From NCBI GenBank assembly GCA_002245135.1, contig NGBS01000297.1:248001-273243 (forward strand): 25,243 nt of DNA. The letters run 5' to 3'. Of this stretch, positions 1,343-21,207 are shown piece after piece. The notes beneath the pieces are model-generated. The model was not told where the DNA came from. It saw only the letters and a list, made by a program, of their open reading frames with translations, and did not search any database. Every line of letters starts with the position of its first letter. The stretch's first letter is position 1. Both the position numbers and the translations under genes were made by a program. This DNA is from Proteromonas lacertae (Eukaryota).

Positions 1343-1373
<31 letters not shown>

Positions 1374-4294
1374 CAAGTTTAATTCATCTATCTCTTTTAT
1401 TGACAGTATTGAATTCATCTCATTCAAATAATTATAATTCTCTTTTAGTTCACATAGTTTGTTTATATTTATATCATATATATTCTCATTCTTCTTTTCT
1501 ATATCATCTAAGTCAATTATTAGCTTGCTTTCTCGAAGTTCATATTCATTTCTCATTAATATGTTCTTTAACATATTTCTATTCATTATATTCATCAAAT
1601 ATATACATATGTATATCCATTTTGGGAATTATATCTCTCACATATTTTACTTCTATCTCATCTAATACTCTTTCTAATATCGTATTTATTGTATTATCAT
1701 CATAGTCTTCTTCTTTCAGTAATACACTTATATCAGTCTCTTTTAAACTGAATTTGTTTATTTCATTTATATTATTCTTTAATTCTTCTTTTATATTATT
1801 CACATTTTTCCAATTATCTAAAAATTGATTTATCTTTTTTAATTTGGTTAGTAGAATCTCAAGTATTTCTTGATCACTCTTTTGTAAATCTAAATTGTTC
1901 ATTTCTATGTATAGTTTCAATAATATTGATTTGTTTATTAGATTAAATCTATCTTTTTCTTCTAATTTATACATTTCTTCTTTTATCGTATTATATTTTA
2001 TCATTTTTAGCTTTATCTCATTTATCTATTATTCATTACATTATATTAACATATATATATATATATATATATATATTCATACATTCTCATTACATATATT
2101 ACATATTATACTCTCTTTATAGTTGTTTAGTATTATATCACTTTTCTCTAGTAACATTTCACAGTCTAATTCTTTCAGTATTTCCATTTTACTTTTATAT
2201 TCTTCCATTGAATATTCCATTGAAGGTATTTCATCTTTTAAATCTATATCATTATTTTTCTCATATTCTATTAGATTTAATAGTTTTAAATAGTTTAGAT
2301 TATCTTTCATGATTTTCATTAATTTTTCATTTTCTTCTTTCTTTTCTAACATCTCACTTATATCTTTCAATATTATATCATTATAATCATTGATATAACT
2401 CTATATATATATATATATTATAATTATCATTTTAATATATACATTTATTTCTTTATTACACTCATTCATATCTTCGATTGTTGTATTTTCTGATAAGATC
2501 TTATTCTCATTTTTTTTCATTTCATCATATGATTCTTCATATCTGTTGAATAATTCGGAATAAACGTCATTGTCATATAACTTGTATGTATTGAGTTTGA
2601 TGAAGATATAATCCCTAAATAATAATAACTATACTAATAATTCATACAGACATGAAAGCTGGTTATAAGTATTCTTTGAAGAATGGCAGTAATTAAATGA
2701 GTTCATTAACAACATGTCTAATTTTAAGATATATTTTATAGGTTCTTCATATTCTAAGAATTTGTAATTCTTGTGTTTATTTGATACTTCAATACTATTC
2801 ACAAATTCTTTAAAATACTCAAAATTTCTGTTTTCTTCTATACTTTTGACTATTTGATTGAATGATTCATCTGAAAGTAAATCATTATAAAACATTAAAC
2901 AAAAGTATAATTTAGCTTTATTACAATCTTTTTCTTCCTTATATTTTTCTATCAACTCTTTTGATCTTTTATTCTTTAATCTTATTGAATCCAACTGAAC
3001 ACAATGATAGTTCCATCTTCCCTCATAGATCATATTATAATAATCTGCCCCATATGAATTAGCTTCATCATAATTTAAAGTTTTCTCTATCTTATATTCT
3101 ATACCTAACGATTGCATGTATTGTTCAATGGCTTTTTGAATGAATGGAATTCTAACTGATCCTCCTAAGATTACTACATTACATTCATTAAAATTTGACA
3201 TTGTTTTTCCTTCAATAGTAATTGCTCTTTTTATGAGATATTTTAATCTTATATTGACAAATTTAGAGTTTAATAAATCATTCAATTCATCTATTCTAAA
3301 AACTCCACTATAATCACCTTCTTCATAAATATCATCAATCTCCACAGCAATCTAAATTGAGAATAATCAATAATTATACTTCAGAAGCACCATCTGCTGA
3401 TAACTTACATTTACAACTTTCTATTACTTTCTTGATCTTTAATATATTTCTTCTATCATTCTTTAATATATAACCATGTTGTTCACCATATTCATTGATA
3501 TTACTATAGAAGTAATTAAAAAGTATATTATCAATTTCATTACCTCCTAAACTATTATCACTCACATGATTTATTATCTCACATTTACCCTATTCACCAT
3601 TATATTACAATTATATATACTTTCGTATATTCTATTACACTAATCTCACTGTTATTATATCCTATATCCATTAGAATTATCTTTCGATTTTCATTCTCAT
3701 TTAGTTGACTGTCATTTTCATAACCATAACATAAACTACTACTTATATAGTTTGGTATTATTTCGATATTATTTATTCCATTTAAATTATATAAACTATA
3801 TAACAAACTCTGTTTGAATTTGTCTATATAAGATGGAACAGATAAACATAGATTAAAAGGATAATTTATGTCTCTTTTTTTTAATTGTTCCATTATTTTA
3901 TTTATAAACATGTATTCTATTTGATCAATCGTATATATAGTATTATCAACATAAAATCCTATTCCATTAACACCTATATTAATCAACGAATCTGGTGAAT
4001 GTAATGGTATATTCAATATCATTTCTGAGTTTATATTTCCAAATAAATCCAATGGTTTGTGTAGTGTACAATTGCCTTTCATCTATTACCTATTATCTGA
4101 ATATAATACATTGTGTTGGGCTGTTTCTCCAAATAATCTTTCTGTTTCCTCTAATCTTATAATAAAACTATCAAAATGTAGATGAATTTATACGGTGTGG
4201 ATTTCTTAGATAATTCATTTTCTATTATGATTGTTGGATGTTTACTAGTCAAAACGTATTTACTTCCACCAAAATCACATCCTACACACTCCAT
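1..4294 (-). CDS. Host spliced gene: divergent Hsp70/Hsp110-family nucleotide-binding domain plus long N/E/K-rich helical extension; 3' end lies beyond the window
   Basis: ATG at 4294 (MECVGCDFGGS). Hsp70 motifs: TPFIIRLEETERLFGE, IILMDIGYNNSEISV, LGGNEID, CKCKLS, VVILGGSVRIPFIQ, TLNYDEANSYGA. One open frame results after removing GTAT..TAG introns at 4168-4193, 4083-4109, 3590-3620, 3352-3379, 2615-2647, 2401-2442, 2026-2082, 1579-1606, 1334-1374, 1175-1212, 962-1009 and 433-458 (about 1290 codons in the window). Confidence 0.88.
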
Positions 4295-4411
4295 AAAACA
4301 AAAAATATGAAAAAGAGTCAAACTTGTTTGTTAATCTATTTTGATTTGTTACAGTTATTATTGAATATGTCTCAAGATTGTATAGTTGGATGTGATTCAT
4401 AATAATGAAAG

Positions 4412-4479
4412 AAAGGGGGAAATGAGTACAATTTGAAACCCCTATTTTTTTTGTATTTTTTGTATTGATTTCCCCCTAT
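4412..4479 (+). repeat. Direct repeat copy 1 (~68 bp) with internal 18-bp imperfect inverted arms
   Basis: aaagggggaaatgagtacaatttgaaacccct...ttgtattgatttccccctat recurs at 19396-19462 with one substitution and one T-run indel. Arms 4414-4431 and 4460-4477 are 16/18 complementary. Confidence 0.95.
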
Positions 4480-4526
4480 TGTTTTTTCACCCTTAGAAAC
4501 ATAATTAAACAATAAAAATAATACCA

Positions 4527-4555
4527 ATCGATTCAGCTCATCATGCTGAATCGAT
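4527..4555. repeat. Perfect 11-bp inverted repeat, 7-nt loop
   Basis: atcgattcagc-tcatcat-gctgaatcgat. Confidence 0.9.
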
Positions 4556-4560
4556 ATAAA

Positions 4561-4631
4561 CCAAAAAAATGGATCCTTTACTCGATCGTGAAATGGATTT
4601 CACGATCGAGTAAAGGACCCATTTTTTTTGG
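4561..4631. repeat. Near-perfect ~34-bp inverted repeat with 2-nt loop
   Basis: ccaaaaaaatggatcctttactcgatcgtgaaat-gg-atttcacgatcgagtaaaggacccattttttttgg. Confidence 0.95.
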
Positions 4632-4747
4632 GTTCATTTGAATTATGATTTTATGATTTTTATTATAACCCCATAAAAACAATAATAATAAAATATATGA
4701 TTTAATTTTGATTATGATTTTATATGACTTAATTAGCAGTCATTATA

Positions 4748-5005
4748 TCAATCAATATCAATCACATCCATATCATCATCATCTTCAAATCTCTTTCTTT
4801 TTCTTTTTGTTTCTTCTTCATGTTTTTCAACATCATGATGATCATCTTCTTCTTCTTTATATATATAAATTATTTCTTGCTTCATTTGTCTATGACAAAT
4901 GATATCATCGTTAGGGTTAGCTTGATCCTCGCTTTGAAAGCCAGATGGTAGATCGCCATCGCCCCATTCACTTAGCTCATCTCCACATAACTTTTTCAGA
5001 TCCAT
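4748..5005 (-). CDS. Small acidic hypothetical viral protein with NLS-like KRKRKR
   Basis: 85-aa ATG ORF with protein-like composition and a T-rich leader. Confidence 0.6.
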   Translation of the reverse strand: MDLKKLCGDELSEWGDGDLPSGFQSEDQANPNDDIICHRQMKQEIIYIYKEEEDDHHDVEKHEEETKRKRKRFEDDDDMDVIDID

Positions 5006-5422
5006 ATTTTAGGGTTAAAAAAATAAATTAAAATAATACAAAAATACTAATGTATTATATGTATTATTTTACTTGTATTTTATGTACTCTTTATTGAGAT
5101 TGAATTGACTTTAGCTAACTATAATTTATATATACTTACTAGGGTATATACCCATCTCAATTATATCAATATCTTATTTCAGGCAATAATCTAAATCATC
5201 TTTGATTATGAAACATATATGAAATCTAACTACATCAATCGATTGCTCATGATATGCCATATAATAAGAAACACATCAGATTATTCATTATGTCAATGGA
5301 TCGTGAGATATTATTTTTTTTTAACAAACCTCAAACATTTGTATTACTAAACAAACAATAACTTTATTGATTAGACCCATAAAAATTTAATAATATATAT
5401 AATAGCAAAAAATACAAAGAAT

Positions 5423-5920
5423 ATGCCTGACCATTTAACATATAATATGCTTAGACAACCTAACGGTGAATATGCTTTTTACATTCATAGATATAGAGAC
5501 AATAGAGCACATAGATGGGTCATTCAATTTCCAATTAAAACAATGAAAATATTAAAAAGAAATAAAGTAAAGGTGTTTATATGTGGTTCACTCAGAACTA
5601 ATAGAAATGATCCAGAAGCACTAGGTGATTATAGACATCATGGCGATCAATTAATGATAAACCTCAAAACCTATGGGTATGACAGAAGAGCTTCAATATT
5701 AGTAATGAATAGAAAATTAAGAAATGGAGAACATGAGTATGCAGATGGTGATTGCATTCCTCAAAAATTTAAAAAATATGTTTTTCATCATATGAGTTAT
5801 CAATGGAATGGAGGGAATTTTTATCACATACATCCAGTTGATAGAAATGTTGCTGATGGAATTAGTAGTAGTAGTGATAGTAGTGATAGTAGTAGTAGTA
5901 GTAGTAGTGACTCTGATTAA
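5423..5920 (+). CDS. Hypothetical viral protein, basic/His-rich with Ser/Asp tail
   Basis: 165-aa ATG ORF; no family recognised. Confidence 0.75.
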   Translation: MPDHLTYNMLRQPNGEYAFYIHRYRDNRAHRWVIQFPIKTMKILKRNKVKVFICGSLRTNRNDPEALGDYRHHGDQLMINLKTYGYDRRASILVMNRKLRNGEHEYADGDCIPQKFKKYVFHHMSYQWNGGNFYHIHPVDRNVADGISSSSDSSDSSSSSSSDSD

Positions 5921-6031
5921 ATACTTAAAAATTCTATTATTATATATATATATATATGTTTGTTTTTGTTTGATAAACATACTATTAATAGTTACTATAT
6001 TTTAAATAATATCAATTATAAAAATCACAAC

Positions 6032-6415
6032 ATGTCTTATTATGGAGGATGGCCAAAAGGGTTTAAAATTAGTAAAGACTGGAATACATATATTCCTAAA
6101 TCAGTTAATAGGAGTAAATGGAGAAAGAGCTATGATTTGTATAGAGACAAAGTAAAGAATGCACTACAAAACAAAACAAAAGTTAAATTACAATATAGAC
6201 AATTAATGAAAATGTATGAACGATTATTAGCTGCTAATCCACCTAAACAAAGAGGAAGACCAAAAGGAAGTAAAGATAGAGCAAAACGTAAACCAAGACG
6301 AGCAGGGCCACGAGCCGCGCCACGAGCCGGGCCAAAGAATGATCCACATCGTATTGTTGTGCATAATGGCAGGCATTATCAGTATGGTATTCCAGTTCCT
6401 AATATGGATAATTAA
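6032..6415 (+). CDS. Basic AT-hook DNA-binding protein (candidate core/chromatin protein)
   Basis: First ATG at 6032. PPKQRGRPKGSKDR matches the HMGA-type AT-hook (RGRPKGSK) and is followed by PRA repeats. Confidence 0.75.
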   Translation: MSYYGGWPKGFKISKDWNTYIPKSVNRSKWRKSYDLYRDKVKNALQNKTKVKLQYRQLMKMYERLLAANPPKQRGRPKGSKDRAKRKPRRAGPRAAPRAGPKNDPHRIVVHNGRHYQYGIPVPNMDN

Positions 6416-6491
6416 AATAATTCTTTATATATAATTTTTATGTAATGTTATGTGTGTTTGTTTTTTGGTGTTTGGTACTGCTATATCCGGC

Positions 6492-6580
6492 GGCCACTTG
6501 ACAACTTGAATTGTAATATAAGTTACAACTGGGGCCACTTGACAACTTGAATTGTAATATAAGTTACAACTTGGGCCAGT
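6492..6580. repeat. 41-bp-period tandem repeat (2 copies plus the degenerate start of a third)
   Basis: ggccacttgacaacttgaattgtaatataagttacaact at 6492 and 6533; ggcca again at 6574. Confidence 0.93.
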
Positions 6581-6647
6581 TGTAAGATACAAGTTTAACC
6601 AAAAGAAACATAATATAATATAATATAATATAAAAAAGCGAAATAAA

Positions 6648-6884
6648 TTAAATAGTCATTTTCCTTTGTTTAGTGATTTCAATAAGAGACTGAATATCCT
6701 TAAGTGTCTTATCATGTTCTAACCCTTTATTCATCATGGCATCTATATTATTTCTAAGTTCTTCTATGTCTGTATTGTTTGGAATACAATTGTGTGCCTT
6801 TAAGTATTTGAAAAGAGCCAAAGCTATCATATACAATACAAATACGAGAACTGAAAGCAAAACAGTTATTACATCAAAGTCCAT
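6648..6884 (-). CDS. Small membrane protein (N-terminal TM helix plus coiled coil)
   Basis: VITVLLSVLVFVLYMIALALF is followed by heptad-like IEELRNNIDAM..LKDIQSLIE. Confidence 0.7.
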   Translation of the reverse strand: MDFDVITVLLSVLVFVLYMIALALFKYLKAHNCIPNNTDIEELRNNIDAMMNKGLEHDKTLKDIQSLIEITKQRKMTI

Positions 6885-6951
6885 GTGTGTTTATGAGAAT
6901 CTTATATAAGAAAACAAAATTAATCAAAGTAATGTATTTATTATCAATAAA

Positions 6952-7551
6952 CTAACTTACAAGACATTGGTTATTATTAATATATTCATCCTTAATGGAT
7001 CTTGGTGATATTGGAGATAAGTCATAATCTGTGAGATTGACATTGTCATTGTCATTTTCAAGCTTGACTTGTATTTCTTCTATTTCTTTATTATCATTAG
7101 GAGGAGGAGGAGGAGGTAATATATTAGCTTCATGATTCATCATAATAATACTTTCTAATAATTGATGAGTTTTTTCAAAAGATGGGTTTCTTTTCTCCTT
7201 AATCTTGTTAACACACTCAAGGAACATATTAGGTGTAATGCGCACAGTCTCATCTACATCAGAAATACCTAATCGTTGAATTAATTTCTCTTTACTCTCA
7301 TCCCACCAACATCCATTTTTGAATCTATATTCCAAGTCTAATCTATACTGTTCATCGACGTATTTGAGTATATATCTGATCTCACTATAAGTTAATTCCT
7401 TTTTCTCGCCACATATCAAATTCCATAATTTCGATTTGGTTGGTGCCCTCATTTTGCCATCCTTTCTAAAGCAATTAATGAGTATTTGTTTATCAGAGTT
7501 CCAAAAGTTATATGGCACTGTTCTAAATTTGTGCTCCTGATCGTTATTCAT
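6952..7551 (-). CDS. Hypothetical viral protein
   Basis: 199-aa ATG ORF transcribed divergently from the penton gene. Confidence 0.75.
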   Translation of the reverse strand: MNNDQEHKFRTVPYNFWNSDKQILINCFRKDGKMRAPTKSKLWNLICGEKKELTYSEIRYILKYVDEQYRLDLEYRFKNGCWWDESKEKLIQRLGISDVDETVRITPNMFLECVNKIKEKRNPSFEKTHQLLESIIMMNHEANILPPPPPPNDNKEIEEIQVKLENDNDNVNLTDYDLSPISPRSIKDEYINNNQCLVS

Positions 7552-7583
7552 TTTTAAAAAATAAAAGTGTAATTAATACTAAT

Positions 7584-7604
7584 AATGACAATATTGACAT
7601 TATT
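7584..7604. promoter_or_regulatory. Putative bidirectional promoter motif (copy at 14875-14895)
   Basis: aatgacaatattgacattatt vs aatgacaatattgatattatt (20/21). Both lie between divergent start codons; palindromic core caatattg. Confidence 0.55.
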
Positions 7605-7636
7605 AACGAATTTATTTTCAAAATAGATTTTATCTT

Positions 7637-8596
7637 ATGTTAGTTTCGAATCATCGTGTATACTACTTAAATTCTGATATGATTGTATTATCTGATTCCA
7701 TGGGTGGAGGAAACAAGTATAAGAAGACATTAAAATTGCAATCATTCGATGATGATTATACTCATGTCAGCTTATTACATGCTGTTATACCCAATTCATT
7801 CCCAACTATACAGGAAGAAACAAATGATGAGTTTTCATTAGTATTCACATTGGGATGGAGACATGATGTTCAAGTAGATGCACCAAAGTATCCAAACATC
7901 ATAAAACACCTCAAAATACCAGAAGGATTCTATGATGAAACTCAGATATTAAGTATGATTAATAATTTAGTAAAAAATATGACATATGATGTTTTTGGAA
8001 TAAATGATGCTGCATATAATGAAGAAGGTTCACATGTGTCTATTATACAAGGAAAAGGAGATTTATTTCGTATAGACAATTTCGATGATAATCAAACATA
8101 TCATATTGAGGTAGCTAATGATATGAATATTATATACTATCAAAAAGACCCAGTATATTGGATAGAAAAATTAGAGATCATCACCAAAGATCTTAGTTAC
8201 AAAATATTAGGTATACCTAAAAACAATTACTGGTGTTGTTTTAAAGAATATATTCCATCTGAAGAACCAGAGAATCAACAAGAAATTATGGTTAAGCCAT
8301 TCCCATTTACTCAATTACCATTTCGTCCTTCTTTGATATGGGTTAATTCTATATCTATTAGATTAGACATAGTGAATATTATGCAGGATTCAAATGTATT
8401 AGAAAATATACCCGTTTCAAATCCTGAGTTACCATTTATTACATATCAGAATAATGACATATTGAATACATCGAAGAGATTTAATAATACCTATAGCAAT
8501 GGTATGATCACTATTCAGATTACTCAACAAAATGGTTATGAACTTAATCTTGATAATATTGAGTTTAATTTAGATATTGTTGTATTTAAAGTCTAA
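7637..8596 (+). CDS. Minor capsid protein (penton, single jelly roll)
   Basis: Motifs YYLNSD, VSLLHAVIPNSFPTI, LKIPEGFYD, VLENIPV and ITIQITQQNGYELNLDNIEFNLDIVV are typical of PLV/virophage/Polinton pentons; the gene sits directly upstream of the MCP. Confidence 0.85.
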   Translation: MLVSNHRVYYLNSDMIVLSDSMGGGNKYKKTLKLQSFDDDYTHVSLLHAVIPNSFPTIQEETNDEFSLVFTLGWRHDVQVDAPKYPNIIKHLKIPEGFYDETQILSMINNLVKNMTYDVFGINDAAYNEEGSHVSIIQGKGDLFRIDNFDDNQTYHIEVANDMNIIYYQKDPVYWIEKLEIITKDLSYKILGIPKNNYWCCFKEYIPSEEPENQQEIMVKPFPFTQLPFRPSLIWVNSISIRLDIVNIMQDSNVLENIPVSNPELPFITYQNNDILNTSKRFNNTYSNGMITIQITQQNGYELNLDNIEFNLDIVVFKV

Positions 8597-8627
8597 TTTT
8601 TTTATTTCTTTATTCTTTTGTTTTCTA

Positions 8628-10085
8628 ATGGCTTTATCTATTCCAAAAGAACAGAAACATGGTGTAGATGTCCCTGTGATGCTACCCTTCTATAATTATG
8701 TGAGATTGTCTCCGATGGGATCAACATCAGAATACAAGTTGGATACAAATACTTATTCAGAAGAGATTAGATGGGAGATAAGTGGAGATAATATTATCAA
8801 TTTAGCTAAGTCATATATCCAATTCGATATCGAAGTAAAATTAAATCCTTATGATGATGGTACCTATGCAAGCGATGGTAGTACTGGTAATTTAGTCGGT
8901 AAAGGTTTATATCCGAGTATGATAAAAGGAATTAAAGAAGGGTTTGGCTTGGCCTCTTTTAGAATTTGTAATCAGACCGGAACAGATCTGGTCAAGCTTG
9001 ATGATTCGTATGAACCATATCGTGTATTTATGGACGAATTAGTTAGAAAGAGATCTGATATATTCTATCAAGACAATTACTATGATGGAATACAATTAGA
9101 TTGGGATGATGATAATCATAATTATAAAGTTCAAGATATCAATAAGTGGAAAGTAGAACCTAGTACACAATATGTTGAATTAAAAGCTAGTACTAGTGCA
9201 TCTACAGCAACAGCATATGCAGTTCAGTATAAAGATTCAGTTATATTACATTTCAAATTACAATTAGGTAAATTTTACAATACATTTGCTGCATTAAAGA
9301 GCGATGTATTCTTTGGAGAGAGAATGTATATATGCATTCGTTTTCAAACCACAAGTAATTATGGTTTATTAAAAGCATATACACCAGATGAATATGCAAG
9401 AATGAAAAATGATAAAACAAAAGATAATGTAAACTATACAGTATCACATGCAGAAGTTGATATAAATGAAGCAATATTCAAGAATTTCAAATTCTATGCT
9501 TATATCAACAAGGATACTCAATGCAACAACAATACCAAACAATACTGCTTATCAAAACCTATTCAATTCAATGATTTTAGATGTCATCAAATTAAAATAC
9601 CATCAGGTGGATCTGGCATATTCAATTATTCATTCACATTGAATAGTTCCAATGGACCATTTGTTCGTTACATAATCTATAGGCCATGGATAGAATCATT
9701 AAAAAGATATGCACATGTACCTGAAAATGCACAATTCAGATGGATGATCAATGATTTTGTATATCAGCCAGATTATACACTTATGCAATATTATGATAGC
9801 TATATGACTGTCCGTGAATATTTCCAAGACTCATGGTATGATATATTCAGAAAAGATGAAAAATTCAATGACAAGTTCTTTGAGATATTGAATTTTGGCT
9901 CTAAGGATTTGGACAATATTAAGAACCAGGCAGGTAGACCTTTGGCTACTGATTTGAAAATAACCTTTGAATTTTCAACACCTGGTACAAATGACTTTAC
10001 TAATAATGATATCACTCATCGTTTCTATATCATCACTGGACGTATGGTCACTATTAATGGAAGTGGTATTGTAAGTGTAGTTTAA
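8628..10085 (+). CDS. Major capsid protein (double jelly roll)
   Basis: 485 aa from the first ATG. YVRLSP...EEIRWEISGDNIINLAKSYIQFDIEV resembles the Polinton/PLV MCP N-terminus; beta-rich; C-terminal MVTINGSGIVSVV; lies between penton and ATPase. Confidence 0.85.
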   Translation: MALSIPKEQKHGVDVPVMLPFYNYVRLSPMGSTSEYKLDTNTYSEEIRWEISGDNIINLAKSYIQFDIEVKLNPYDDGTYASDGSTGNLVGKGLYPSMIKGIKEGFGLASFRICNQTGTDLVKLDDSYEPYRVFMDELVRKRSDIFYQDNYYDGIQLDWDDDNHNYKVQDINKWKVEPSTQYVELKASTSASTATAYAVQYKDSVILHFKLQLGKFYNTFAALKSDVFFGERMYICIRFQTTSNYGLLKAYTPDEYARMKNDKTKDNVNYTVSHAEVDINEAIFKNFKFYAYINKDTQCNNNTKQYCLSKPIQFNDFRCHQIKIPSGGSGIFNYSFTLNSSNGPFVRYIIYRPWIESLKRYAHVPENAQFRWMINDFVYQPDYTLMQYYDSYMTVREYFQDSWYDIFRKDEKFNDKFFEILNFGSKDLDNIKNQAGRPLATDLKITFEFSTPGTNDFTNNDITHRFYIITGRMVTINGSGIVSVV

Positions 10086-10093
10086 AAATAATC

Positions 10094-10117
10094 ATAATAT
10101 CGATAACGGCTATATTT
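10094..10117 (+). promoter_or_regulatory. Putative promoter motif upstream of the ATPase (copy at 17632-17655)
   Basis: ataatatcgataacggctatattt vs ataatatcaataacggctatattt (23/24). Confidence 0.6.
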
Positions 10118-10146
10118 CTTATAATTATGTTTTTGTTATTTTTGTT

Positions 10147-11004
10147 ATGAGTAAAGTTAATTTAGAAAAAATAAACAACATAGTCATAAATCCTGTTGAG
10201 ACAGTAGTCAAAGGATGTGGAAAACGCTCCAAAGATAGTGTCCTTGGATATGACTATTTCCAGGAGCCATTCTGCAACATATTTATTTTAGCTAAGAAAA
10301 ACAGTGGTAAGACTACACTTATATTTAATATGATCCAACACTTGCTAAAAAAGGGATATGACCAAGTAGTGTATTTTTTCGTTGCAACTATATCCAAGGA
10401 TATCATATATGAGAAAATCACTGATATGCTCAAGTATAACCAAATTGAGTACCATTGCTATGATTCAGTAGTGAATGAAGATAGAGTGAATATATTGGAT
10501 GCAGTATTAGATAATATCAAAGATATAGACAAAGATAATTATGATTACCCAGAGAATATATTTATATTCGATGATATATCATTCGATTTAAGAAATAAAT
10601 CCGTTTCTAAATTACTTAAGTCAAACCGTCATTACAAGTCAAAAGTAATTATATCAAGTCAATATGTCACTGACATTACTCCCTCTGTTCGTTTACAGCT
10701 TGATTACTGTTTGGTATTCAAAAACCTGAGTATGGCTAATTTACGAAATCTGTATGCAAGTTTAGATATATGGATCGATTTTGATGTTTTCAAATCATAT
10801 TATGATTATGCAACTAAACAGAGTAATCACTCATTTTTATATATCGATTTATATAATCATGAATTTAGAGTGAATTTTGATAGCAGAATTAGAGATAATA
10901 GTAATAATAGCTATAATCACAATAATAAATATGATCACCTCATTTCCTATAGCAGCGATGATGAGTCCACTGATTCATCAAGTTATCCCAGCGATTCGGA
11001 ATAA
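10147..11004 (+). CDS. A32/FtsK-HerA family genome-packaging ATPase
   Basis: Walker A variant AKKNSGKTT, Walker B IFIFDD, NRHY arginine motif, IISSQY, PSVRLQ and HSFLYID. Confidence 0.93.
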   Translation: MSKVNLEKINNIVINPVETVVKGCGKRSKDSVLGYDYFQEPFCNIFILAKKNSGKTTLIFNMIQHLLKKGYDQVVYFFVATISKDIIYEKITDMLKYNQIEYHCYDSVVNEDRVNILDAVLDNIKDIDKDNYDYPENIFIFDDISFDLRNKSVSKLLKSNRHYKSKVIISSQYVTDITPSVRLQLDYCLVFKNLSMANLRNLYASLDIWIDFDVFKSYYDYATKQSNHSFLYIDLYNHEFRVNFDSRIRDNSNNSYNHNNKYDHLISYSSDDESTDSSSYPSDSE

Positions 11005-11059
11005 TAATAATCCCCATATTGTCACTAATATAATTTTTTTGTTTATTTTGCTATATTTT

Positions 11060-12055
11060 ATGTTTGGCCGTCCTATTAAAAAACAAGCTGTATCAACAGA
11101 TCTAACACCTGTCACGAGGGCACTAACATCGATTACAAGCAATTTGGGAGAAAAAGTTGGAGATGCTAAATCGATTAGAGAAATGTTGGTCGATATCAAG
11201 AATAGTGGTACAGGAGGATCATCTGGATCAGGTGGTGATATTGATAGTGCAACTAGTGAGAAAATTGATAAAATTGTGAATGTCATTGGAAAGACCAAAT
11301 TAGAGAGTTGGGAAAATAACATATATTATATGATAAATAATATGTATGCTTATTCTGTTACTGATGCTGATTCAACTTATAATATTGCCAATGGGTTGGT
11401 AGGAGTTATTGGTAGAAATCAATTAACTGAAGGTGAGAAAAATATATACAATATGTTATCTGTTTTGTATTCTACAATTTATGATGATGCTAATTCAATT
11501 GCTTATAATGTCAATAGTATAATGTCCTTTATAGGATATCGAAGTGAATATCAAGATAGTTCATGGAAAATGGAGAATCGTATAAAATGGAGTTCTATGG
11601 GTGAAAATAACATGATATTAAAATCTGTAGATGGTCAATTAGAAATTATTCAAGCAAGACAAGTTTTACCAAACTGTTATTGCTTTATAAGATATGCAGC
11701 TTTTCAAACATATTTGCAAATAGAAATACTAAATCCTGTTAGAATAATAACAAGCGAACTAATAATTAATTCAATCTTAACTCCAGATGTAGAAAAATTT
11801 TTAAGCAAATATTTAAGTTTTACAAATAATGTACCAAGAATAGATATATTTTTTGAGTCATTAAGTGGGCATCATCAAGTATGCTTTTTTGAAATTACTC
11901 GTGATAGATGTAGTTTTAGTATGAAAAATCCTACTACAGAACATAATGTGGATAACTTTGAAGGTAATTGTATTCTAATCCCACAAAAAATAATATTTCC
12001 ATATGGTAATAATGTTATAATTCATAAAGATGATGCATTTGATTTTAATATATGA
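11060..12055 (+). CDS. Fibre/spike-like protein (putative)
   Basis: First plausible ATG (MFGRPIKK) follows a T-rich leader. Helical N-terminus, GTGGSSGSGG hinge, ~41-aa tandem repeat and beta-rich C-terminal domain; located in the structural cluster. Confidence 0.5.
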   Translation: MFGRPIKKQAVSTDLTPVTRALTSITSNLGEKVGDAKSIREMLVDIKNSGTGGSSGSGGDIDSATSEKIDKIVNVIGKTKLESWENNIYYMINNMYAYSVTDADSTYNIANGLVGVIGRNQLTEGEKNIYNMLSVLYSTIYDDANSIAYNVNSIMSFIGYRSEYQDSSWKMENRIKWSSMGENNMILKSVDGQLEIIQARQVLPNCYCFIRYAAFQTYLQIEILNPVRIITSELIINSILTPDVEKFLSKYLSFTNNVPRIDIFFESLSGHHQVCFFEITRDRCSFSMKNPTTEHNVDNFEGNCILIPQKIIFPYGNNVIIHKDDAFDFNI

Positions 12056-12062
12056 ATTATAA

Positions 12063-12765
12063 TTAATTCTTCTTGTTTCTCTTGTATTGTTGGTTTTGAT
12101 TATCACTCTCAGTTCTTCTTTTCATCGGAGCAGGTGTTGTTGGTACTGGAATAATATCATAATCTGCAGGTTGTGTATACATATTCTCCAAATCTATGTC
12201 ATCTACATCCTGATTCTCAGCACACTGATCCTCATCATCCTCCTTCTCCTTCTCAAGTTTTTGCTCAAATTTCTTGATACTACTATGCACCTTCAAATTT
12301 TGGGATAATAGTGTATTTTTCTTTATCCTTCTTATCTAATACAGTTATCTGTCTAATTCTCAAATCACACTGACACTCATAAAATAAATAACTTGGAGGA
12401 TCTTTAATCTTGTTTAACCATGCCCAGAATCTGACAGTGTTATTATCGTTGTCTTCAGGAAATATCACTTGGAAGCCACATTTCTTATAGTCTTTGACCA
12501 TATTTGAGTCATCTGTATACTTGATGGCATAATCCACAAACATTTTTTTCAAAGGCTCCTTTACATCTTGATAATAATTTTTAATAGGTCTTCTGTTCTT
12601 AAATAAGAACCTTCCTGGAGTAAAACTCATGATATAGTACTTTGCATCTTCAATCTTTTCTGTATTTGGTTCAGCTTCATTACACCATCCTTTTACAGTT
12701 AAATAAGTAACATCTCTATCATCTAATGTTATAAAATTAGATCCATTATTGATATTTGAGCTCAT
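12063..12765 (-). pseudogene. Frameshifted gene, possibly an ssDNA-binding protein with acidic tail
   Basis: ORFs 12283-12765 and 12063-12296 join by a 1-nt shift near 12295-12301 (..YTIIPK/LKVHSSIKKFEQ..). The beta-rich core plus acidic C-terminus is only suggestive of an SSB. Confidence 0.45.
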
Positions 12766-12958
12766 GCCGCCAAAATGAATATTATATATCCGTTTCACAA
12801 AAAAGATTTATGTGGTTTGAATATATTTGATACATTTGGAGCGGTTATACAAATTACCGCGCATACTATGAACATGTGTAAATTGTATAGTTTGATTACA
12901 CAAGCTTATTTGATAGATTCCATTTCTTTTAAATTATATCATATCATTACACTCAAGC

Positions 12959-13189
12959 ATGTCAGACAACCAAAAAGATACTTCAGAAAAATATAAGGAC
13001 TTAGATTATTGTGATTACATGCCATTCGAAGATGCTCGAAATAGATTCTGGGAGCGTATGGAGCAATTAGACCCTAATGGGAGTGATGCTTTATCTAAAG
13101 AGTATAATCGATTTTTAAAGAATTTTAATCAAGAAAGAGAAGAAATAATGAGAAGTAATTATAATAATTATAATAATAGTAACCATTAG
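12959..13189 (+). CDS. Small hypothetical viral protein
   Basis: 76-aa ATG ORF with charged helical composition. Confidence 0.6.
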   Translation: MSDNQKDTSEKYKDLDYCDYMPFEDARNRFWERMEQLDPNGSDALSKEYNRFLKNFNQEREEIMRSNYNNYNNSNH

Positions 13190-13210
13190 TTAATTAATTA
13201 ATTAATTAAA

Positions 13211-13848
13211 TTACGGTCTATAGTATTCTCTTTTTGATATGACTCCCACAAATTTACAAAGACAATGATACACGTTCCATATTAACCGCTCATACTCATC
13301 TAACTCCCTCTCAAAATGCACCAACTCATAATGATTTCCTTCTTTTTCATTATTACGTATACGTTCCCATAGACATATTAATACATTATGAACTCCAACT
13401 TTTACTGCAGAGTATCGGAACAGTATCTTTCAAACATAATTTTATAGCATCATCTACTCTATTACTCACCTCTATACAATCTTCTACACTGAGATTAAAA
13501 AATCTTGTTTGAATTCTATAATGAGTTAGAGATTCTTTAAAAATTTCTAAAATATGCTGAATTTGAGTTATATTGAATTTCACACGTGGTAAACTCTCTT
13601 CACCAATTGGTAATGCTAAACCAGCATGTCCCTCACAATCACATATTGCTCTCTCACTATGCTCCAAAACATCTAAATTAGCTTTATATGTATGCACATC
13701 CATTTTCTTTACATCTTTTCTCATTGAATAGGCATACTGGTTTTACAGCATCTTCAATCGGCAATGCTCTTTCTAATTCAGTGAAATCTAGAGGTTTAAC
13801 AATACTTTTAGGTGAGTCAGTATGTTGTAATGGTGGTACAGTGTTCAT
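13211..13848 (-). CDS. Hypothetical gene in three frame segments (two frameshifts or two 31-nt introns)
   Basis: MNTVPPLQ.. (13848), the 13386-13724 ORF and ..ILFRYSAVKVGVHNVLICLWERIR..YYRP* (stop 13211) are successive +1 frames. Confidence 0.5.
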
Positions 13849-13907
13849 GATAAGCAAAAAAAATTAATTAAAAAAAAATAAAGTAATTACGTTTAATCAC
13901 TTAACAC

Positions 13908-14431
13908 TTAAAGATCTTCTAAATCTTCTTCTTTATCAAGGTTTTTTGAATCGTCACATTGCATGTTTGGCTTGATCAAATGCTTATGTTTTTTTGATGG
14001 TACTAATTCATCTAATGATTCAGATATAGTACTTAATAATTTTCTTTTAGTGGTGTGGATTACACTATCTGGTGTTACAATATCTGCAATATCATAATCA
14101 TCGTACCATGTGTCCATTTTCCATCCTCATCATCATTGAACTCAGCATCATATTCTACATCATCATCAATGAAATCCTTTAAATTACCATTACTATCAAC
14201 ATCACTTGCATTTGGATCATCTTCAGGATCATAGTCATCAGAGTCATCGTCAGTACATTCTGCTTCTCCATATAAGTACTTATACACATTATCAATCATA
14301 TCCCTTTCTCTTTTTCTTTTTTGACTGAATCGCATTTTCTTATCTTCTAAATTTTCTTTCTTTTGGTCTTGATCATTTGATTTACCCATTATGCCTATAA
14401 CGTGTATGGTATTATGGTTGTTTGAATCCAT
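13908..14431 (-). pseudogene. Acidic low-complexity protein, frameshifted at 14117-14120
   Basis: Adding one A to the A4 run gives ..DDEDGKMDTWYDDYD.., which fuses ORFs 14075-14431 and 13908-14117. Confidence 0.55.
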
Positions 14432-14499
14432 AGAACACAATATACAAAAAATAATAAAATGAAACGAATATATTTCAAATATTGATATTATGTTAATTA

Positions 14500-14859
14500 T
14501 TAACCTATTAATGTCATATTTTGTCTAGCATATTGCACAGGAGTTAAATTCTGTACTGGGTATGGCTGTTGTTGTTGTATTGGTGTTTGATTTCTCTCCA
14601 TTAACACTTCATCTGTCAATTTATTTAATATAGCTTGTGCTTCCTTGAATCTCCATGGATTAATACTCTTTAACATCTGTTGTGCCTCTGGAGGTAATGT
14701 TTCGAGTGTTTTCAGTACTTGAGCTTGTTGATCATTTTGTACCGATTGTTGCGATTGTTGATTCGGTTGTGGCTGTGGTAGATATTGAGGGTGTTGACCA
14801 TCTTGTTGATATGCAACACCACTATTAAAAGTTATTTGAGGTATTGGACCAGCTGACAT
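14500..14859 (-). CDS. Gln/Pro-rich hypothetical viral protein
   Basis: First ATG at 14859 (MSAGPIPQ), 119 aa. Confidence 0.7.
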   Translation of the reverse strand: MSAGPIPQITFNSGVAYQQDGQHPQYLPQPQPNQQSQQSVQNDQQAQVLKTLETLPPEAQQMLKSINPWRFKEAQAILNKLTDEVLMERNQTPIQQQQPYPVQNLTPVQYARQNMTLIG

Positions 14860-14933
14860 ATTAAAAACGGCTATAATGACAATATTGATATTATTGACTA
14901 TATTATCACTCAAAAATATAATTATTTCAAATT

Positions 14934-15463
14934 ATGGTTAAAAGAAGTTCAAAAGTGAAATATCGTAAGTATATCATAGGTAAAGGCAAGTTCTGGGATG
15001 GAGTAAAGAATTTCTTTAAGAAAACAAAAATTTTATCAACAGCAGCTAGTTTAATCCCAGGTGTAGGTCCAGCCTTAGGTAATGTTGTATCCAATGTAGG
15101 ATATGGTAGAAAACGTAGAAGAAGAGGTGGACAAGCAGAATGGAATTATGATGGTGGTATAAGTGGTGCTGGTTCTTTTGGAATAAAGTTAAGAATGCAA
15201 AGATACCAAAGGAATTAAAAAATGTAATTAGTGGTGGTCCAGGCAGTATGCCCTATTTAAAAAATGGTGGAATGGCTAATCCATTTGCTGTAAAGATGTT
15301 AGGTGGTCCAAGCACTATTCCAAAAAAGAATTGGACGAAAGGTGGTCCAAGTACTATACCGAAATTTTTGTTAGCAAAGAAAAAGACTGGTTCTGGTAAA
15401 AGACGTAAAAGTAGTAATAGTCTCGATAATCGATATATTGACAATAAGATTAGAGTTTTCTAG
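14934..15463 (+). CDS. Arg/Gly-rich core / protein VI-like precursor, frameshifted at 15176-15179
   Basis: GKGKFWDGVKNFFKK. Adding one T to the T4 run yields a second motif GAGSFWNKVKNAK and fuses to ORF 15248-15463 (GGPSTIPK x2). Confidence 0.7.
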
Positions 15464-15522
15464 TCTAATTTTATTTTTTTCTATTTTAATCGTATTTCTT
15501 TATTTTCATTCGAAATAACATA

Positions 15523-15816
15523 ATGCCAAAAGGTGGTAGAAGACGTAGATGCGTTTATGGAAGAAGGGGTGGTTCATTTTGGGGTAAGTTAAAAAATTGG
15601 GGTTCCAAAGCATTTAACTGGGCAAAGGATCATAAAATAGCATCCAAAATAGCTAGGGAATTTGGAAAGAACGATATCGCAGATGGATTATCAACAATGG
15701 GATTTGGTCGTAGAAGACGTAGGTCAGGAAGAGGTAGATTACCATTCAATGGAGGTGGGAGTAATCAACAAGCATTATTGAATGCATATTTAAAATCAAA
15801 GGTGGCTCGAATGTAA
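15523..15816 (+). CDS. Arg/Gly-rich protein VI-like (membrane-lytic/core) protein
   Basis: RRGGSFWGKLKNWGSKAFNWAK amphipathic helix; G(F/Y)GRRRRR motif shared with the upstream gene. Confidence 0.75.
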   Translation: MPKGGRRRRCVYGRRGGSFWGKLKNWGSKAFNWAKDHKIASKIAREFGKNDIADGLSTMGFGRRRRRSGRGRLPFNGGGSNQQALLNAYLKSKVARM

Positions 15817-15911
15817 GCTTGACTTTTAATAATGCTAATAATACTTATATTATTATTATTTTCATTGTTCTTTTTGTTAATTTTATTTTTCATAACATAG
15901 AAATAAAAAAA

Positions 15912-16526
15912 ATGAGTGATACTGAATCAACTGAATACGTGAGTGATGATAGTTCTACTGATGAGTCTGATAGTGAAGTAGAGTCAATAAATGAAAATGA
16001 TTCCAAGATGTCCAAACCAAAAATCGCAGAAGCTGAACCAAGTGATGCTATGATCAATGAATTACTATCACAATTCTCTCCAAAGGATATATACAACATA
16101 TTACAGAATGATGGATCATCATCTCATAAAAATTCAATAAAAGGTAAAAAATACTCCCATAAATCCAGATCAAGATCAAGATCACATGAGAGATCCAAAA
16201 GAAGATCTAGCAAGAAACAAAAATCAAATGCTTTAGACGAGCCAAAGTCCAAACGTGGTGGTGGTAGAAAAAATAGTAAAAAGGATAGGGACTCATCATT
16301 ACCTCCTCCTAGTCGTATGACAAAAGCTGAATTACAAATAGCTTTGAAAGAAACCAGAGATCAATTAGGCAAATATATGAAGAAATTAGAAAAGAGTTCA
16401 AATCCAAAGAAAGAGAAAATAGAGAAAGTAAAAGAACCAGAACCAGAAGAAGATAAACCATTAGGTAATGATATTGCAGGTAGAGAAATACAAGGCGAGC
16501 CTATCGAGCCTGTTTATGTTCAATAA
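15912..16526 (+). CDS. Charged low-complexity protein (acidic N-terminus, RS/K-rich middle, coiled coil)
   Basis: First ATG at 15912 (MSDTES); SRSRSRS tract. Confidence 0.75.
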   Translation: MSDTESTEYVSDDSSTDESDSEVESINENDSKMSKPKIAEAEPSDAMINELLSQFSPKDIYNILQNDGSSSHKNSIKGKKYSHKSRSRSRSHERSKRRSSKKQKSNALDEPKSKRGGGRKNSKKDRDSSLPPPSRMTKAELQIALKETRDQLGKYMKKLEKSSNPKKEKIEKVKEPEPEEDKPLGNDIAGREIQGEPIEPVYVQ

Positions 16527-16597
16527 TATTAATAATACTTATATTACACATTATTATTATAATTAAATTGTTTCTTTTTATTTTCTATTAAGTTATT

Positions 16598-17620
16598 ATG
16601 AAAAAACTAAATAAGAAAATACTGCTTGCTGTGTTTGCTCGGATGAGAGGCAAAGGCAAAAGAAAGAAGATACGGAGAGGTGAAGGATATAAAGGACATG
16701 ACAAATATTATCAGAGTTTATATAATAATTTTTATAGAGAAAATGCGAAAGATTTAGTGGATATAAGAAACAGTCGTTTAAATGAAATAAAAGATGAGAT
16801 TACTAAGTTAAATTCTAAAGACACTCCTCCTAATGAAGGTGATATTCGTAAATTGAATGATGAGCAAAAATTTTTAGAGAGACAGAATGCAATCGATTCT
16901 ATGTTATCTACATCATTACATGAAGGTAATGCAATGGCTATACCACTTGCTAATAGTTTAAGAGAGATTGATGATCAGCATTTGTTTGGTCCTAACATGT
17001 ATGTGAATATGAATAGACCTAATTACAATGAAATGGCTCAAGCAAGTGCAAAGACTAGGATGCAGATGGGTGAGTATATGAGTAATCCAATTAACCAAAT
17101 CAAGATGTCACAAATGCAACAAATGGTATATATGCTATATGTTTTGATTTATATATAATAGTAGAAGTTGAATAAATTGATTACTCCTAAAGCAGAAACA
17201 GATATTAAAGTACAGCCGTCTACTGGTAATACAGATGATGTTAAAGAACAGACTGATCATGATCCTGTTGATGATATTACTATTGACGATGTTAAAAAAT
17301 TTACTAAAGAACAAATGGATGAAATATTTGATGAATATGACTTTACAGAAGCTCAGAAAACTAAAATAAAAGAATTATGGGAAGAAGCTCAAAATATTAA
17401 ACAATATGAAGAATGGGTTGCAAATGGAAAAACAGATGATGATGATGATGAAAATGAAGATATTGAATTCAATAAACCAAAAGAAGAAGAAGAAGAAGAT
17501 GATGATGAATTTAAATCTGATTTTGAAGAAGAAGAAGAACAAGAAGATGAGAATGAGGATAATGTTAAAAAAATTGATAGACAGTTAAACAGAATTTTTG
17601 ATGAACTGGGTATTCATTAA
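16598..17620 (+). CDS. Spliced viral gene (intron 17126-17164): basic N-terminus with GxG motifs, acidic C-terminus
   Basis: ORFs 16598-17158 and 17168-17620 share a frame. Removing the 39-nt GTATAT..TAG segment deletes the stops and gives QMQQM/KLNKLITPK. Confidence 0.75.
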
Positions 17621-17631
17621 TAATATCATCT

Positions 17632-17655
17632 ATAATATCAATAACGGCTATATTT
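17632..17655 (+). promoter_or_regulatory. Putative promoter motif (copy of 10094-10117)
   Basis: 23/24 identity; 45 nt upstream of the ATG at 17701. Confidence 0.6.
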
Positions 17656-17700
17656 TTAATAGCATTGTTTCTCTATTTTTTATATTGTTTTATATATTTT

Positions 17701-19032
17701 ATGGGTGTTAAACGAAAGCATAAGCAACAATCATCACCAAAAGAAGAAGCAATTGATTTTGAGAATCCTTCTGTGTATCATAATGCACTTAAGAGAAAAT
17801 TGAAAAAGATCATCTACAACAAAGTGAAAGATAACAAAAAAATAAAACTAGATCTTAGTCACATGGCTAACCCAACAGTCAATGTTGACAAAGGCAATGG
17901 TACATATGGATTAGGCATCTATGATCCTAAATCTAATTTCAATAAATTTTATGATACTATAGGAGATGATGATGATATAGAGGAATTATCAAAGCCTGTT
18001 AATCCAAATATAAACGCAACAAAAAACAATTTCATGACTGATGAGATGAAATACAAATTATATATGTCAGGCATCACAGATCAGTTTGGACGATATTATA
18101 GGAACATAGGTAAGTATAACAAACCATACTCAGATTATTATGCTCAACCAGAGAATTTAACATATCAATGGCAAAATCCATTTTTATCTCAAATTGAAGG
18201 ACAGCCATTACAACAATGGGGATCACAGTACAATGTAAATTCATATCAATCCAATCCAAGATGGAATAATAATGCTGGTACAACACAAAAAGATCACGAG
18301 TATGAATTACAACAAGAAAATGAAATAATGAAAGCAAGGAATGAAGAATATCAGAGAAAGATAGCAACAATGGAAGAAAGAGAAAAAGAGTCATTAATTG
18401 CAAAAATTGATAAATATTTCTCAGGTAATACAACATACGATTGGTTGAAATTTGGTGTGAAGTTCTGCTTATGTACTATGACATTAGGTTCTATTTCACA
18501 AGTGTTTGATATACTATTTCCTGATAGTACTGTTGGTGCAATATTAAAGTATTTAGTAAATGCAGGAATAGGATATAGTGGTGTTATGCAATGGATATTT
18601 GGTTTATCTCCAGCATGGGTTAATGCAGCATCTTTTCTGTCAATGTTAACTCCTAATTTTGTCAGTTTGGTATATAATCGTTGGAAACAAGTTCCTCCAA
18701 TGGATATGTCACAATGGATTCATTCTAAGTTAGATAGTATAATGGGTTTCTTTACTACATCACTAAGTAATATATACAATTGGTTCAGAGGTATATTTGG
18801 TGCTACTCCTACAACAACAACAAATTCGACGAGTGCGCCGGCCACTTCAAATATTCAAGCATCGAATGTTACAACTGCTCCCAGTTATAATAATACAACT
18901 AATAGTACTACAATTGCCCCCAGTTATAATAATCAAAGTTCAAATGCTGCAAGTTACGCCACGGCGGCAGCAGCCCAGCCAGCATTCCAAAATAACTATA
19001 ACAATATGTTATACCATGATAGAAATATATAA
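17701..19032 (+). CDS. Large hypothetical protein with coiled coil, hydrophobic/amphipathic helices and T/S/N-rich tail
   Basis: 443 aa from the first ATG; hydrophobic block FGVKFCLCTMTLGSISQVFDILF..AASFLSMLTPNFVSLVY. Confidence 0.8.
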   Translation: MGVKRKHKQQSSPKEEAIDFENPSVYHNALKRKLKKIIYNKVKDNKKIKLDLSHMANPTVNVDKGNGTYGLGIYDPKSNFNKFYDTIGDDDDIEELSKPVNPNINATKNNFMTDEMKYKLYMSGITDQFGRYYRNIGKYNKPYSDYYAQPENLTYQWQNPFLSQIEGQPLQQWGSQYNVNSYQSNPRWNNNAGTTQKDHEYELQQENEIMKARNEEYQRKIATMEEREKESLIAKIDKYFSGNTTYDWLKFGVKFCLCTMTLGSISQVFDILFPDSTVGAILKYLVNAGIGYSGVMQWIFGLSPAWVNAASFLSMLTPNFVSLVYNRWKQVPPMDMSQWIHSKLDSIMGFFTTSLSNIYNWFRGIFGATPTTTTNSTSAPATSNIQASNVTTAPSYNNTTNSTTIAPSYNNQSSNAASYATAAAAQPAFQNNYNNMLYHDRNI

Positions 19033-19395
19033 TCTTATGATAGTTTATAGTGTATTGGAAATAGAAAAAACGAATTAAAAAAAAGAAGGCTTGAAGGCTC
19101 GAAATTGTTTTTAACAAAAAATAAACTGTTTTTTGAGAGCAATCCAGTCCAAGATTAAAGGCTTGAAATATATATTACAAAGCTTGTAGAATATTCTGCA
19201 AAGCACTGTAAATCTTAAAAAATAAAGATTAACTTAGTCAAACCATCAAGCTTGATGTTTTTTTCTTTTGATTTTTTTATTCTATAATTAATTTAATACT
19301 ATGTTAATTATATGTTATTGTGAGTCATCATTGTGAGTGCATCGACTGATAGTCAAATTTGATATTTGAAAGATGATGTATAATAATAATGAATA

Positions 19396-19462
19396 AAAGG
19401 GGGAAATGAGTACAATTTGAAACCCCTGTTTTTTTGTATTTTTTGTATTGATTTCCCCCTAT
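19396..19462 (+). repeat. Direct repeat copy 2 of 4412-4479
   Basis: Near-identical sequence in the same orientation, 14984 bp downstream. Confidence 0.95.
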
Positions 19463-19657
19463 GTGTTTTTTGTCCGTTTCATAATCAAATCATAATTCAA
19501 GCTTACATTATTTTTCGCTTTTCTGTTTGAATTTAAACAAAAATAATTATTCCATTTGAATCCTCATCTTATGATGAATCTATTTATGTTGTTAGTTCAA
19601 ATTATAGAAAGTGAATGACATATAATTTCAAAAAATAATTCAATAAAAACAATCTCA

Positions 19658-19709
19658 ATAGGATGGTCAACACATGGTGTGATATGACACCATATAGTGA
19701 CCATCCTAT
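19658..19709. repeat. Imperfect hairpin
   Basis: ataggatggtca..atggtgt-gatatg-acaccat..tgaccatcctat (12-bp and 7-bp stems). Confidence 0.85.
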
Positions 19710-19884
19710 GTAATAAAAAACAAAACAAAAAAATGGAGTTCAAGTCAAATCTCGAAACGCATCTATTTTTCTATTATTGATATTTCTTATAAGACTTGTT
19801 ATAATGCTAATTAATTATGTAAATTATGAAAACAACACTCCCACACAAACACAATCAATCATTTGAACCAATTAGGACCAGAGA

Positions 19885-20683: not shown

Positions 20684-21015
20684 AATAAGTGAATTGAAAG
20701 GGAAATAACGTTGAACAATGAACAAATGTTATATGTATATATGAAACGGATATATATATTTTTAAATGTTGCTATAAAGACATATAACTCTATTAATTTA
20801 GATAATAATCATAATGAAATGAATTTCATTATTACTTTTGTTTTTTGTTTTTGGACCATATGTTTAGCACTAATAGTTACGATCCACATTTATACAGCTC
20901 ATATAGCAACCAGAACCCATATCCTGTCAAACCGTTACCTACAAATGGTAACTTATCACTTGCAACATATATTAACCATGATAATAATATATATTAAGGG
21001 CTACAGACCCAAAAT

Positions 21016-21058
21016 GGCTTGACGCTAGACCACGAGGCTTGACGCTGGACCCGAGGCT
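21016..21058. repeat. Short GC-rich tandem repeat (~19 bp x2)
   Basis: ggcttgacgctagaccacga ggcttgacgctggacccga ggct. Confidence 0.8.
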
Positions 21059-21106
21059 AAAATTTATATATTCGTTTCATTTTTCTTATTTTTCATTTTA
21101 TTCAAT

Positions 21107-21207
21107 AACCGTTCATTTGTACAACGGTTTTAACGGTCGTTACGAATCCGTTACATGTCAGTTACATAACTGACGTGTAACTGACGGTGTAACTGCCGTC
21201 CGTTGTA
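21107..21207. repeat. Imperfect palindrome rich in AACGG/GTTAC motifs
   Basis: Core gttacatgtcagtta-ca-taactgacgtgtaac (14/15); outer arms tacaacgg/ccgttgta. Confidence 0.8.

Follow-up and report, generated by a model that had tools for sequence, protein, structure and literature searches.

Direct repeats, probably Polinton-type termini, around the capsid genes of a likely decaying provirus in Proteromonas lacertae

How does a short repeat come to stand twice, in the same orientation, around the capsid genes of an integrated virus, with the viral DNA polymerase gene left outside, when the ends of such elements are normally inverted? The question is raised by a stretch of 25,243 bp from the protist Proteromonas lacertae (GenBank assembly GCA_002245135.1, contig NGBS01000297.1, positions 248,001 to 273,243 of the forward strand), here called the window, to which all coordinates refer. 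The window carries the family B polymerase (polB), double jelly-roll capsid protein, penton and A32-type ATPase of the Polinton/Maverick set, together with two copies, A and B, of a quasi-palindromic repeat. A first-pass annotation had proposed that these copies were either the recombination sites of an excisable circle or the shared ends of two co-integrated segments. With moderate confidence we read both as Polinton-type terminal repeats, copy B being the polB-side end of a second or flipped arm, within a nested, tandem or rearranged provirus. The locus is likely a decaying provirus with same-facing ends and not a programmed excision unit.

The repeat pair and its surroundings

Self-BLASTN of the window aligned copy A (4399-4487, +) with copy B (19383-19471, +) at 85 of 90 columns (94.4% identity, E 6e-32), in the same orientation and at an offset of 14,984 bp. 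The alignment score of 151 compares with a maximum of 34 in 100 shuffles. The pair of direct repeats reported by the first-pass annotation is thus correct in position and orientation; the common stretch, of approximately 89 bp, begins 13 bp before 4412/19396 and extends about 8 bp past the 68 bp originally called. The inverted arms of 18 bp around an asymmetric spacer, also described there, were recovered at 4414-4431/4460-4477 in copy A and 19398-19415/19443-19460 in copy B, complementary at 16 of 18 positions and separated by 28 nt in copy A and 27 nt in copy B. In the spacer the copies differ by one substitution and by an indel in a T run; outside it, they differ by two adjacent substitutions before the G run and an indel after the C run. 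Copy A opens with two ATA units and copy B with three, the third occupying 19380-19382. The plus-strand folds of copies A and B gave z scores of -3.3 and -2.9 (200 shuffles).

Self-BLASTN of the window revealed neither a third copy nor an inverted copy of the whole repeat. A 12-mer from the arm, allowed up to two mismatches, matches the whole window at five sites (2.2 expected): the four arms and a two-mismatch site at 13334, which is a chance match. Exact and gapped patterns of the repeat had no matches in viral, metagenome or prokaryote contigs and none in phage records, 83 distant loci bearing the ATPase gene yielded just short AT-rich matches of 13-19 bp, and an Rfam scan gave no match.

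Copy A sits at the boundary between host and viral DNA. Positions 1-4294 of the minus strand hold a host gene whose N-terminal part is of the Hsp70 family (Pfam HSP70 in two exons). This gene forms the left flank of the insertion; once its 12 GT-AG introns (26-57 nt) are removed, the frame is open from the ATG at 4294 to the beginning of the window, without a frameshift over 4.3 kb. The placement of copy A rests on its distance of 105 bp from the ATG of this intron-rich gene and on its position at a step in G+C content, from 22% in the host part to 30.0% between the repeats (31.2% after copy B). Short introns like these are also known from Blastocystis, for which a length peak of 30 bp is described (PMC5608401). 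The Blastocystis polyadenylation motif, TGTTTGTT, was seen four times against 2.1 expected and is therefore no commoner than chance. On the plus strand a frame that starts with ATG (4367-4402) encodes MSQDCIVGCDS and ends at the start of copy A; its sequence resembles the N-terminus of the neighbouring host gene, MECVGCDFGG (ATG 4294, minus strand). This frame may be a divergent paralog that the insertion interrupted near 4397, in which case the junction would be fixed there.

The likeness of the two copies extends beyond them chiefly on one side: it begins abruptly at ATAATAATGAA and fades inward. Beyond a 45-nt indel lies a second homologous block, a small hairpin at 4505-4558 (+), the faded inner extension of the repeat, with its counterpart at 19533-19586 (+); the two are identical in 42 of 56 columns and are reciprocal best matches among 656 tiles. 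For the 150 nt downstream of each copy 0, 0 and 16 of 1000 shuffles reach the observed score in three scorings, and for the 150 nt upstream 81, 6 and 126. Over longer spans these counts become 0, 248 and 283 downstream, and 312, 257 and 715 upstream. The downstream likeness is real but short, and the upstream one falls for the most part, though not entirely, within chance expectation. Two homologous ends are expected to show this pattern of a sharp outer edge and a likeness that fades inward.

Further inward is the hairpin-rich stretch that the first pass had placed after each copy. A 32-bp hairpin at 4563-4628 stands 3' of ORF 4748-5005 (-) and another follows copy B at 19658-19709; the stretches that hold them fold with z scores of -14.8 and -5.4. 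The strongest hairpins of the window (4563-4628, 19658-19709, 21345-21463 and 13182-13217) either follow the 3' ends of minus-strand genes or separate convergent genes; giant viruses and virophages carry transcription-end hairpins at such places.

The surroundings of the copies bear directly on the idea that the repeat is a small host MITE (miniature inverted-repeat transposable element) or a dispersed hairpin that was inserted twice. This we hold to be the least probable account of all, since neither copy is flanked by a target duplication and since the copies share 13 bp before the palindrome, some 8 bp after it and a block 20-60 bp downstream, which independent insertions would not. A precedent for such insertion does exist in a distant Polinton (L026, with polB, rve integrase, helicase, protease and capsid genes), which holds a 410-bp quasi-palindromic MITE twice in direct orientation, at 5379-5796 and 10279-10688; the two copies, both with a target duplication of 3 bp, lie at the ends of its protease gene and its polB gene. 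Pairs of inverted repeats separated by 3-7 kb were also seen inside distant contigs resembling polinton-like viruses (PLVs), at 2097-2355/8244-8500 in L001, 12589-12777/19515-19704 in L010 and 243-307/2967-3030 in L003. These are possibly inserted elements or invertible segments.

Gene content of the two arms

The division of genes claimed in the first pass, with capsid and packaging genes inside the repeat pair and polB outside it, was borne out: penton, capsid and ATPase genes occupy 7637-11004 and polB begins at 22194. Between copy A and the capsid genes, which read away from it, a stretch of 3,238 bp holds five small ORFs; between copy B and polB, which likewise reads away, a stretch of 2,811 bp holds three. 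We refer to the interval between the copies as the capsid arm and to the part right of copy B as the polB arm.

The accessory region of the capsid arm (4748-7551) holds the five small ORFs, which belong to no known family, and a 41-bp tandem repeat at 6492-6573. The minor capsid protein, or penton (7637-8596, +), was recognized with a profile of 30 pentons from ATPase-bearing loci (E 1.9e-11). The gene for the double jelly-roll major capsid protein (8628-10085, +) is full length and was assigned from its homologs, predicted structure and profile (E 1.9e-15). A word-indexed search found six homologs, all from Logan, with 32-67% identity over 100% of the length, and an exhaustive search 12 clusters of relatives at E < 1e-30; among the double jelly-roll capsids that the structural model (pLDDT 56) matches, with a best E of 4e-8, is that of mavirus. 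The A32-type genome-packaging ATPase (10147-11004, +), also full length, has 86 homologs, the best at 89% identity and many with PF04665. The closest relatives of both the capsid protein and the ATPase are all Logan proteins. Searches based on the ATPase returned 3 + 80 loci, all of them distant (27-37% identity, one partial match at 43%) and thus uninformative on the ends of this virus family; among related loci sought through the capsid protein and through polB none was confirmed.

The rest of the capsid arm (10931-19032) consists of unassigned ORFs, small Arg/Gly-rich ORFs at 14934-15816, which we take to be core-protein-like, and a 443-aa ORF at 17701-19032. The latter and ORF 5423-5920 were considered as a hidden recombinase or replicase and set aside, since neither had a usable match; they belong to no known family, and the single-sequence fold of ORF 17701-19032 was unusable (pLDDT 37.5). 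The non-coding share of the arm is 20%. ORFs 12066-12765 (-) and 13908-14431 (-) seem to go on in another frame, and judging by these small ORFs the capsid arm may be decaying too. A candidate GT-AG intron of 39 nt at 17126-17164 (+), AT-rich (18% GC) like those of the host, would join viral ORF 16598-17158 to 17315-17620, making this a candidate viral gene with a short spliceosomal intron. Three short motifs (at 7583 and 14874; at 10105, 14866 and 17643; and at 15839 and 16533) occur only in intergenic gaps of the capsid arm, where they precede structural-type genes and are candidate late promoter elements.

The accessory region of the polB arm (19658-22091) includes hairpins at 19658-19709, 21345-21463 and 22033-22091, the three small ORFs, all on the minus strand, and GC-rich short repeats at 21014-21210. 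The latter lie 1.6 kb inward of copy B, and the 41-bp tandem pair of the capsid arm 2.1 kb inward of copy A; each of the two arrays holds CTTGAC twice, and they are possible origin or binding arrays. The Polinton-type polB gene (22194-25243, +) is cut by the window end. P0093 (1673 aa, PF03175), the sole long polB relative found, aligned with it in two frames, at 35% and 49% identity. The reading of the gene in the window is broken by a stop at 22536, which may alternatively lie inside a 39-nt intron candidate, by a frameshift near 23750 and by a stop at 25175. A changed genetic code as the cause of these breaks was dropped because one of them is a frameshift and because the capsid gene ends at a TAA where its homologs end. 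The N-terminus of the polymerase is rich in Pro, Tyr and Gln, and at approximately 24390-24850 (+) a long acidic low-complexity insertion follows the second exonuclease-region motif, at the same position as in P0093.

Pfam was run on all 86 frames of at least 55 aa right of 4400, and none of those frames, which cover the window only, contained an integrase, recombinase, protease or helicase; as a positive control, the same library finds integrase, protease and polymerase in L026. A 19-sequence protease profile, a 7-sequence helicase profile and a single integrase probe likewise found nothing in the window, and a loose recombinase motif scan of it picked out the ATPase frame only. An rve (DDE) integrase was not found in the window, where the element runs off the right end, and neither was a maturation cysteine protease, which may lie outside. 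Twenty of the 83 distant ATPase-bearing loci encode a maturation protease.

These searches weigh against the proposal that the copies are att-like sites through which the 14,984-bp capsid module is excised as a circle by site-specific recombination. Their direct orientation, the inverted arms around an asymmetric spacer and the 94% identity speak for it, and rare loop-out through host homologous recombination is possible in principle. We nevertheless regard it as highly improbable: no tyrosine or serine recombinase family is represented among the 86 frames, and the spacers measure 27-28 nt and differ between copies by one substitution and one indel. Tyrosine-recombinase cores have spacers of 6-8 bp, which must match. 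Furthermore, an attL/attR pair shares its core only, whereas here the likeness extends downstream of both copies, and the excised molecule would have no detectable replicase. Finally, pPolB is described as accompanying DDE integrases, not tyrosine recombinases (bioRxiv 10.64898/2026.10.13.758929).

The two arms have no gene in common and are alike in composition, with a G+C content of 30.0% in the capsid arm and 31.2% in the polB arm and observed/expected CpG ratios of 0.48 and 0.49, as would be expected if they were halves of a single family. Adding the part of polB beyond the window brings their total to about 23 kb or more, within the usual range; for the PLVs of one host a mean of 22.2 kb is given (PMC12220804).

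The same data can be read as two elements. A capsid-only element and a transpoviron-like element with polB and integrase but without capsid genes would share a terminus, be integrated side by side and complement each other in trans, as a helper-satellite or bipartite system. Each of the fully complementary arms starts with the repeat, copy B stands exactly between the modules, and neither a replicase nor an integrase is detectable in the capsid arm. In addition, polB has three breaks in 3.05 kb and the three core capsid-arm genes none in 3.3 kb, a difference that hints at separate histories and is not significant (p ~0.11-0.18). Capsid-less pPolB/DDE modules with bracketing repeats of their own are reported (bioRxiv 10.64898/2026.10.13.758929). 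The bidnaviruses offer a two-segment precedent, and a model for the bipartite reading, in that their segments have a conserved terminal structure and a Polinton-derived polB; as they are described, however, they have single-stranded DNA, a single jelly-roll capsid and inverted ends on each segment (PMC4061559), and the capsid arm of the window lacks the right one. There it has only the half-arm within copy B, whereas a self-standing linear segment needs an inverted terminus. The capsid arm is also without a detectable maturation protease, in contrast to the 20 distant loci that encode one, and the arms do not differ in composition. Moreover, the Blastocystis MELD virus, a protist virus of this general kind and a possible relative, likewise pairs divergent virion proteins with a Polinton-type polB and is described as having polB, integrase and virion genes in one genome (PMC8502044). 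All told, the two-element explanation is unlikely, though we rank it first among the alternatives. Its evolutionary form, namely that a capsid element and a polB/integrase element have arisen by the splitting of a protist Polinton lineage, keep the same palindromic terminus, integrate adjacently and complement each other in trans, we consider slightly less probable still; no report of such a lineage was found in the literature, as judged by titles and abstract openings. Of the first-pass proposal of two segments, then, the shared ends that part a morphogenesis arm from a replication arm are supported, while the bipartite or helper-satellite system is unlikely, given a capsid arm without an inverted end of its own.

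How the probable ends may have come to face the same way

We therefore return to the reading of copies A and B as Polinton-type terminal repeats. Copy A is likely the terminal repeat at the host-virus junction. Copy B is likely the polB-side terminal repeat of the second or inverted arm, because in both places some 3 kb of small genes separate the copy from a core module that reads away from it. An ordinary Polinton layout with one end flipped already accounts for this arrangement. Of the features of a Polinton tip, the (ATA)2-3 start and the end-like position were seen; the inverted partner is absent within the window. The locus is Polinton-like in its workings, with integrase, inverted partner and target duplication not within the window.

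On this reading the 89-bp sequence would be the terminal repeat of the family, capping both ends of an intact element in inverted orientation, and the genes for integrase and protease would be found on the far side of polB, past the window end. We infer that polB is protein-primed, and the (ATA)n tip would serve both protein-primed initiation and joining by the integrase. A tandem tip has such a role in initiation in models of adenovirus and Polinton replication. The inner palindrome and the hairpins would be protein-binding or transcription-end signals. Two routes could have produced the same-facing ends. In the first, a sister element would have entered the gap behind the last gene of the capsid arm in the opposite orientation; in the second, the right arm of the same element would have been inverted, so that normally inverted ends now read as direct. 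Neither the five differing columns out of 90 nor the faded inner block separates these routes, as both are compatible with two distinct copies and with two long-diverged ends.

Several observations weigh against this reading. No intact member of the family was seen, and in the contigs and loci searched the repeat was never observed as an inverted pair. Copy B stands in the intergenic gap just after the last gene of the capsid arm and splits the modules cleanly, and with only 20% of that arm non-coding a random nested insertion there needs luck. The end motif is ATA and not the AG or AGT of vertebrate Mavericks, and an 18-bp palindrome within a terminal repeat is left unexplained by the model. 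The right junction, at which a 5-6-bp target-site duplication of the Polinton kind would be completed, lies outside the window. The sequence upstream of the copies is not wholly unlike, as shown by the 6 per 1000 in one scoring and, within the closest 30 nt, by 43-160 per 1000. Downstream, two of three scorings lose the signal over longer spans (248 and 283 per 1000). Lastly, the excess of breaks in polB, not significant as it is, also counts on this side.

A more trivial cause of the arrangement would be a chimeric assembly, in which two copies from a multi-copy family were falsely joined at 19382/19383. Multi-copy endogenous virophages are described as often mis-assembled or partly assembled (PMC8547959), and the window ends inside polB. 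A false join, however, needs sequence shared across the junction, and the 350 nt before copy B match nothing else in the window (E < 0.01); the host flank is free of frameshifts over 4.3 kb. We consider a chimera quite improbable.

Known systems and significance

As in Polintons and Mavericks, the window combines a Polinton-type polB with a double jelly-roll capsid protein, a penton and an A32-type ATPase, its probable end repeat opens with a short tandem unit, and accessory genes lie between each end and an inward-reading core. Vertebrate Mavericks are described as having two modules that face the centre and are flanked by accessory regions; their terminal repeats measure 46-1447 bp and have (AGT)2 or (AG)3 at the tip (PMC8097293). 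The window departs from Polintons and Mavericks in that its two ends are direct, not inverted, its end unit is ATA, the integrase and protease are not in it, and its capsid protein has close relatives only among Logan proteins. In vertebrate Mavericks, moreover, the ATPase goes with polB and the integrase with the capsid genes, whereas the ATPase of the window goes with the capsid genes.

Both terminal repeats turned direct and tandem Polintons are already published arrangements, to which this locus probably adds another case. The polisuviruses, as described, show tandem integration, degraded endogenous copies, transpoviron-like inserts and repeats that bracket a replication module and set it apart from the capsid module (bioRxiv 10.64898/2026.10.13.758929). 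Tandem integration, degraded copies and the setting apart of the replication module by repeats are the points of likeness. The cases presented in that account were chosen for two replicases, and their inner repeats are distinct from the terminal ones; the window shows a single replicase, and its inner repeat is the same as the outer end. At the eri-6/7 locus of C. elegans, Polinton terminal repeats are reported to be direct after multiple insertions and an inversion (bioRxiv 10.1101/2024.01.15.575659); there they measure approximately 700 bp and surround host exons, whereas those of the window measure some 89 bp and surround viral capsid genes. Two adjacent PLVs with one common morphogenetic module are also described (PMC12220804). 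The Blastocystis MELD virus differs in being presented as one genome with an integrase (PMC8502044).

If it is true that the arms are separate elements sharing ends, the locus would represent a segmented or helper-dependent Polinton system, and the independent movement of replication modules would become directly testable. On the likely reading it is another instance of the tandem or rearranged Polintons that have been proposed as a route for the swapping of capsid and replication modules (bioRxiv 10.64898/2026.10.13.758929). The locus supplies a probable end sequence for a little-sampled family of protist viruses, and decaying loci of this kind could be a source for the exchange of capsid and replication modules that is known to occur.

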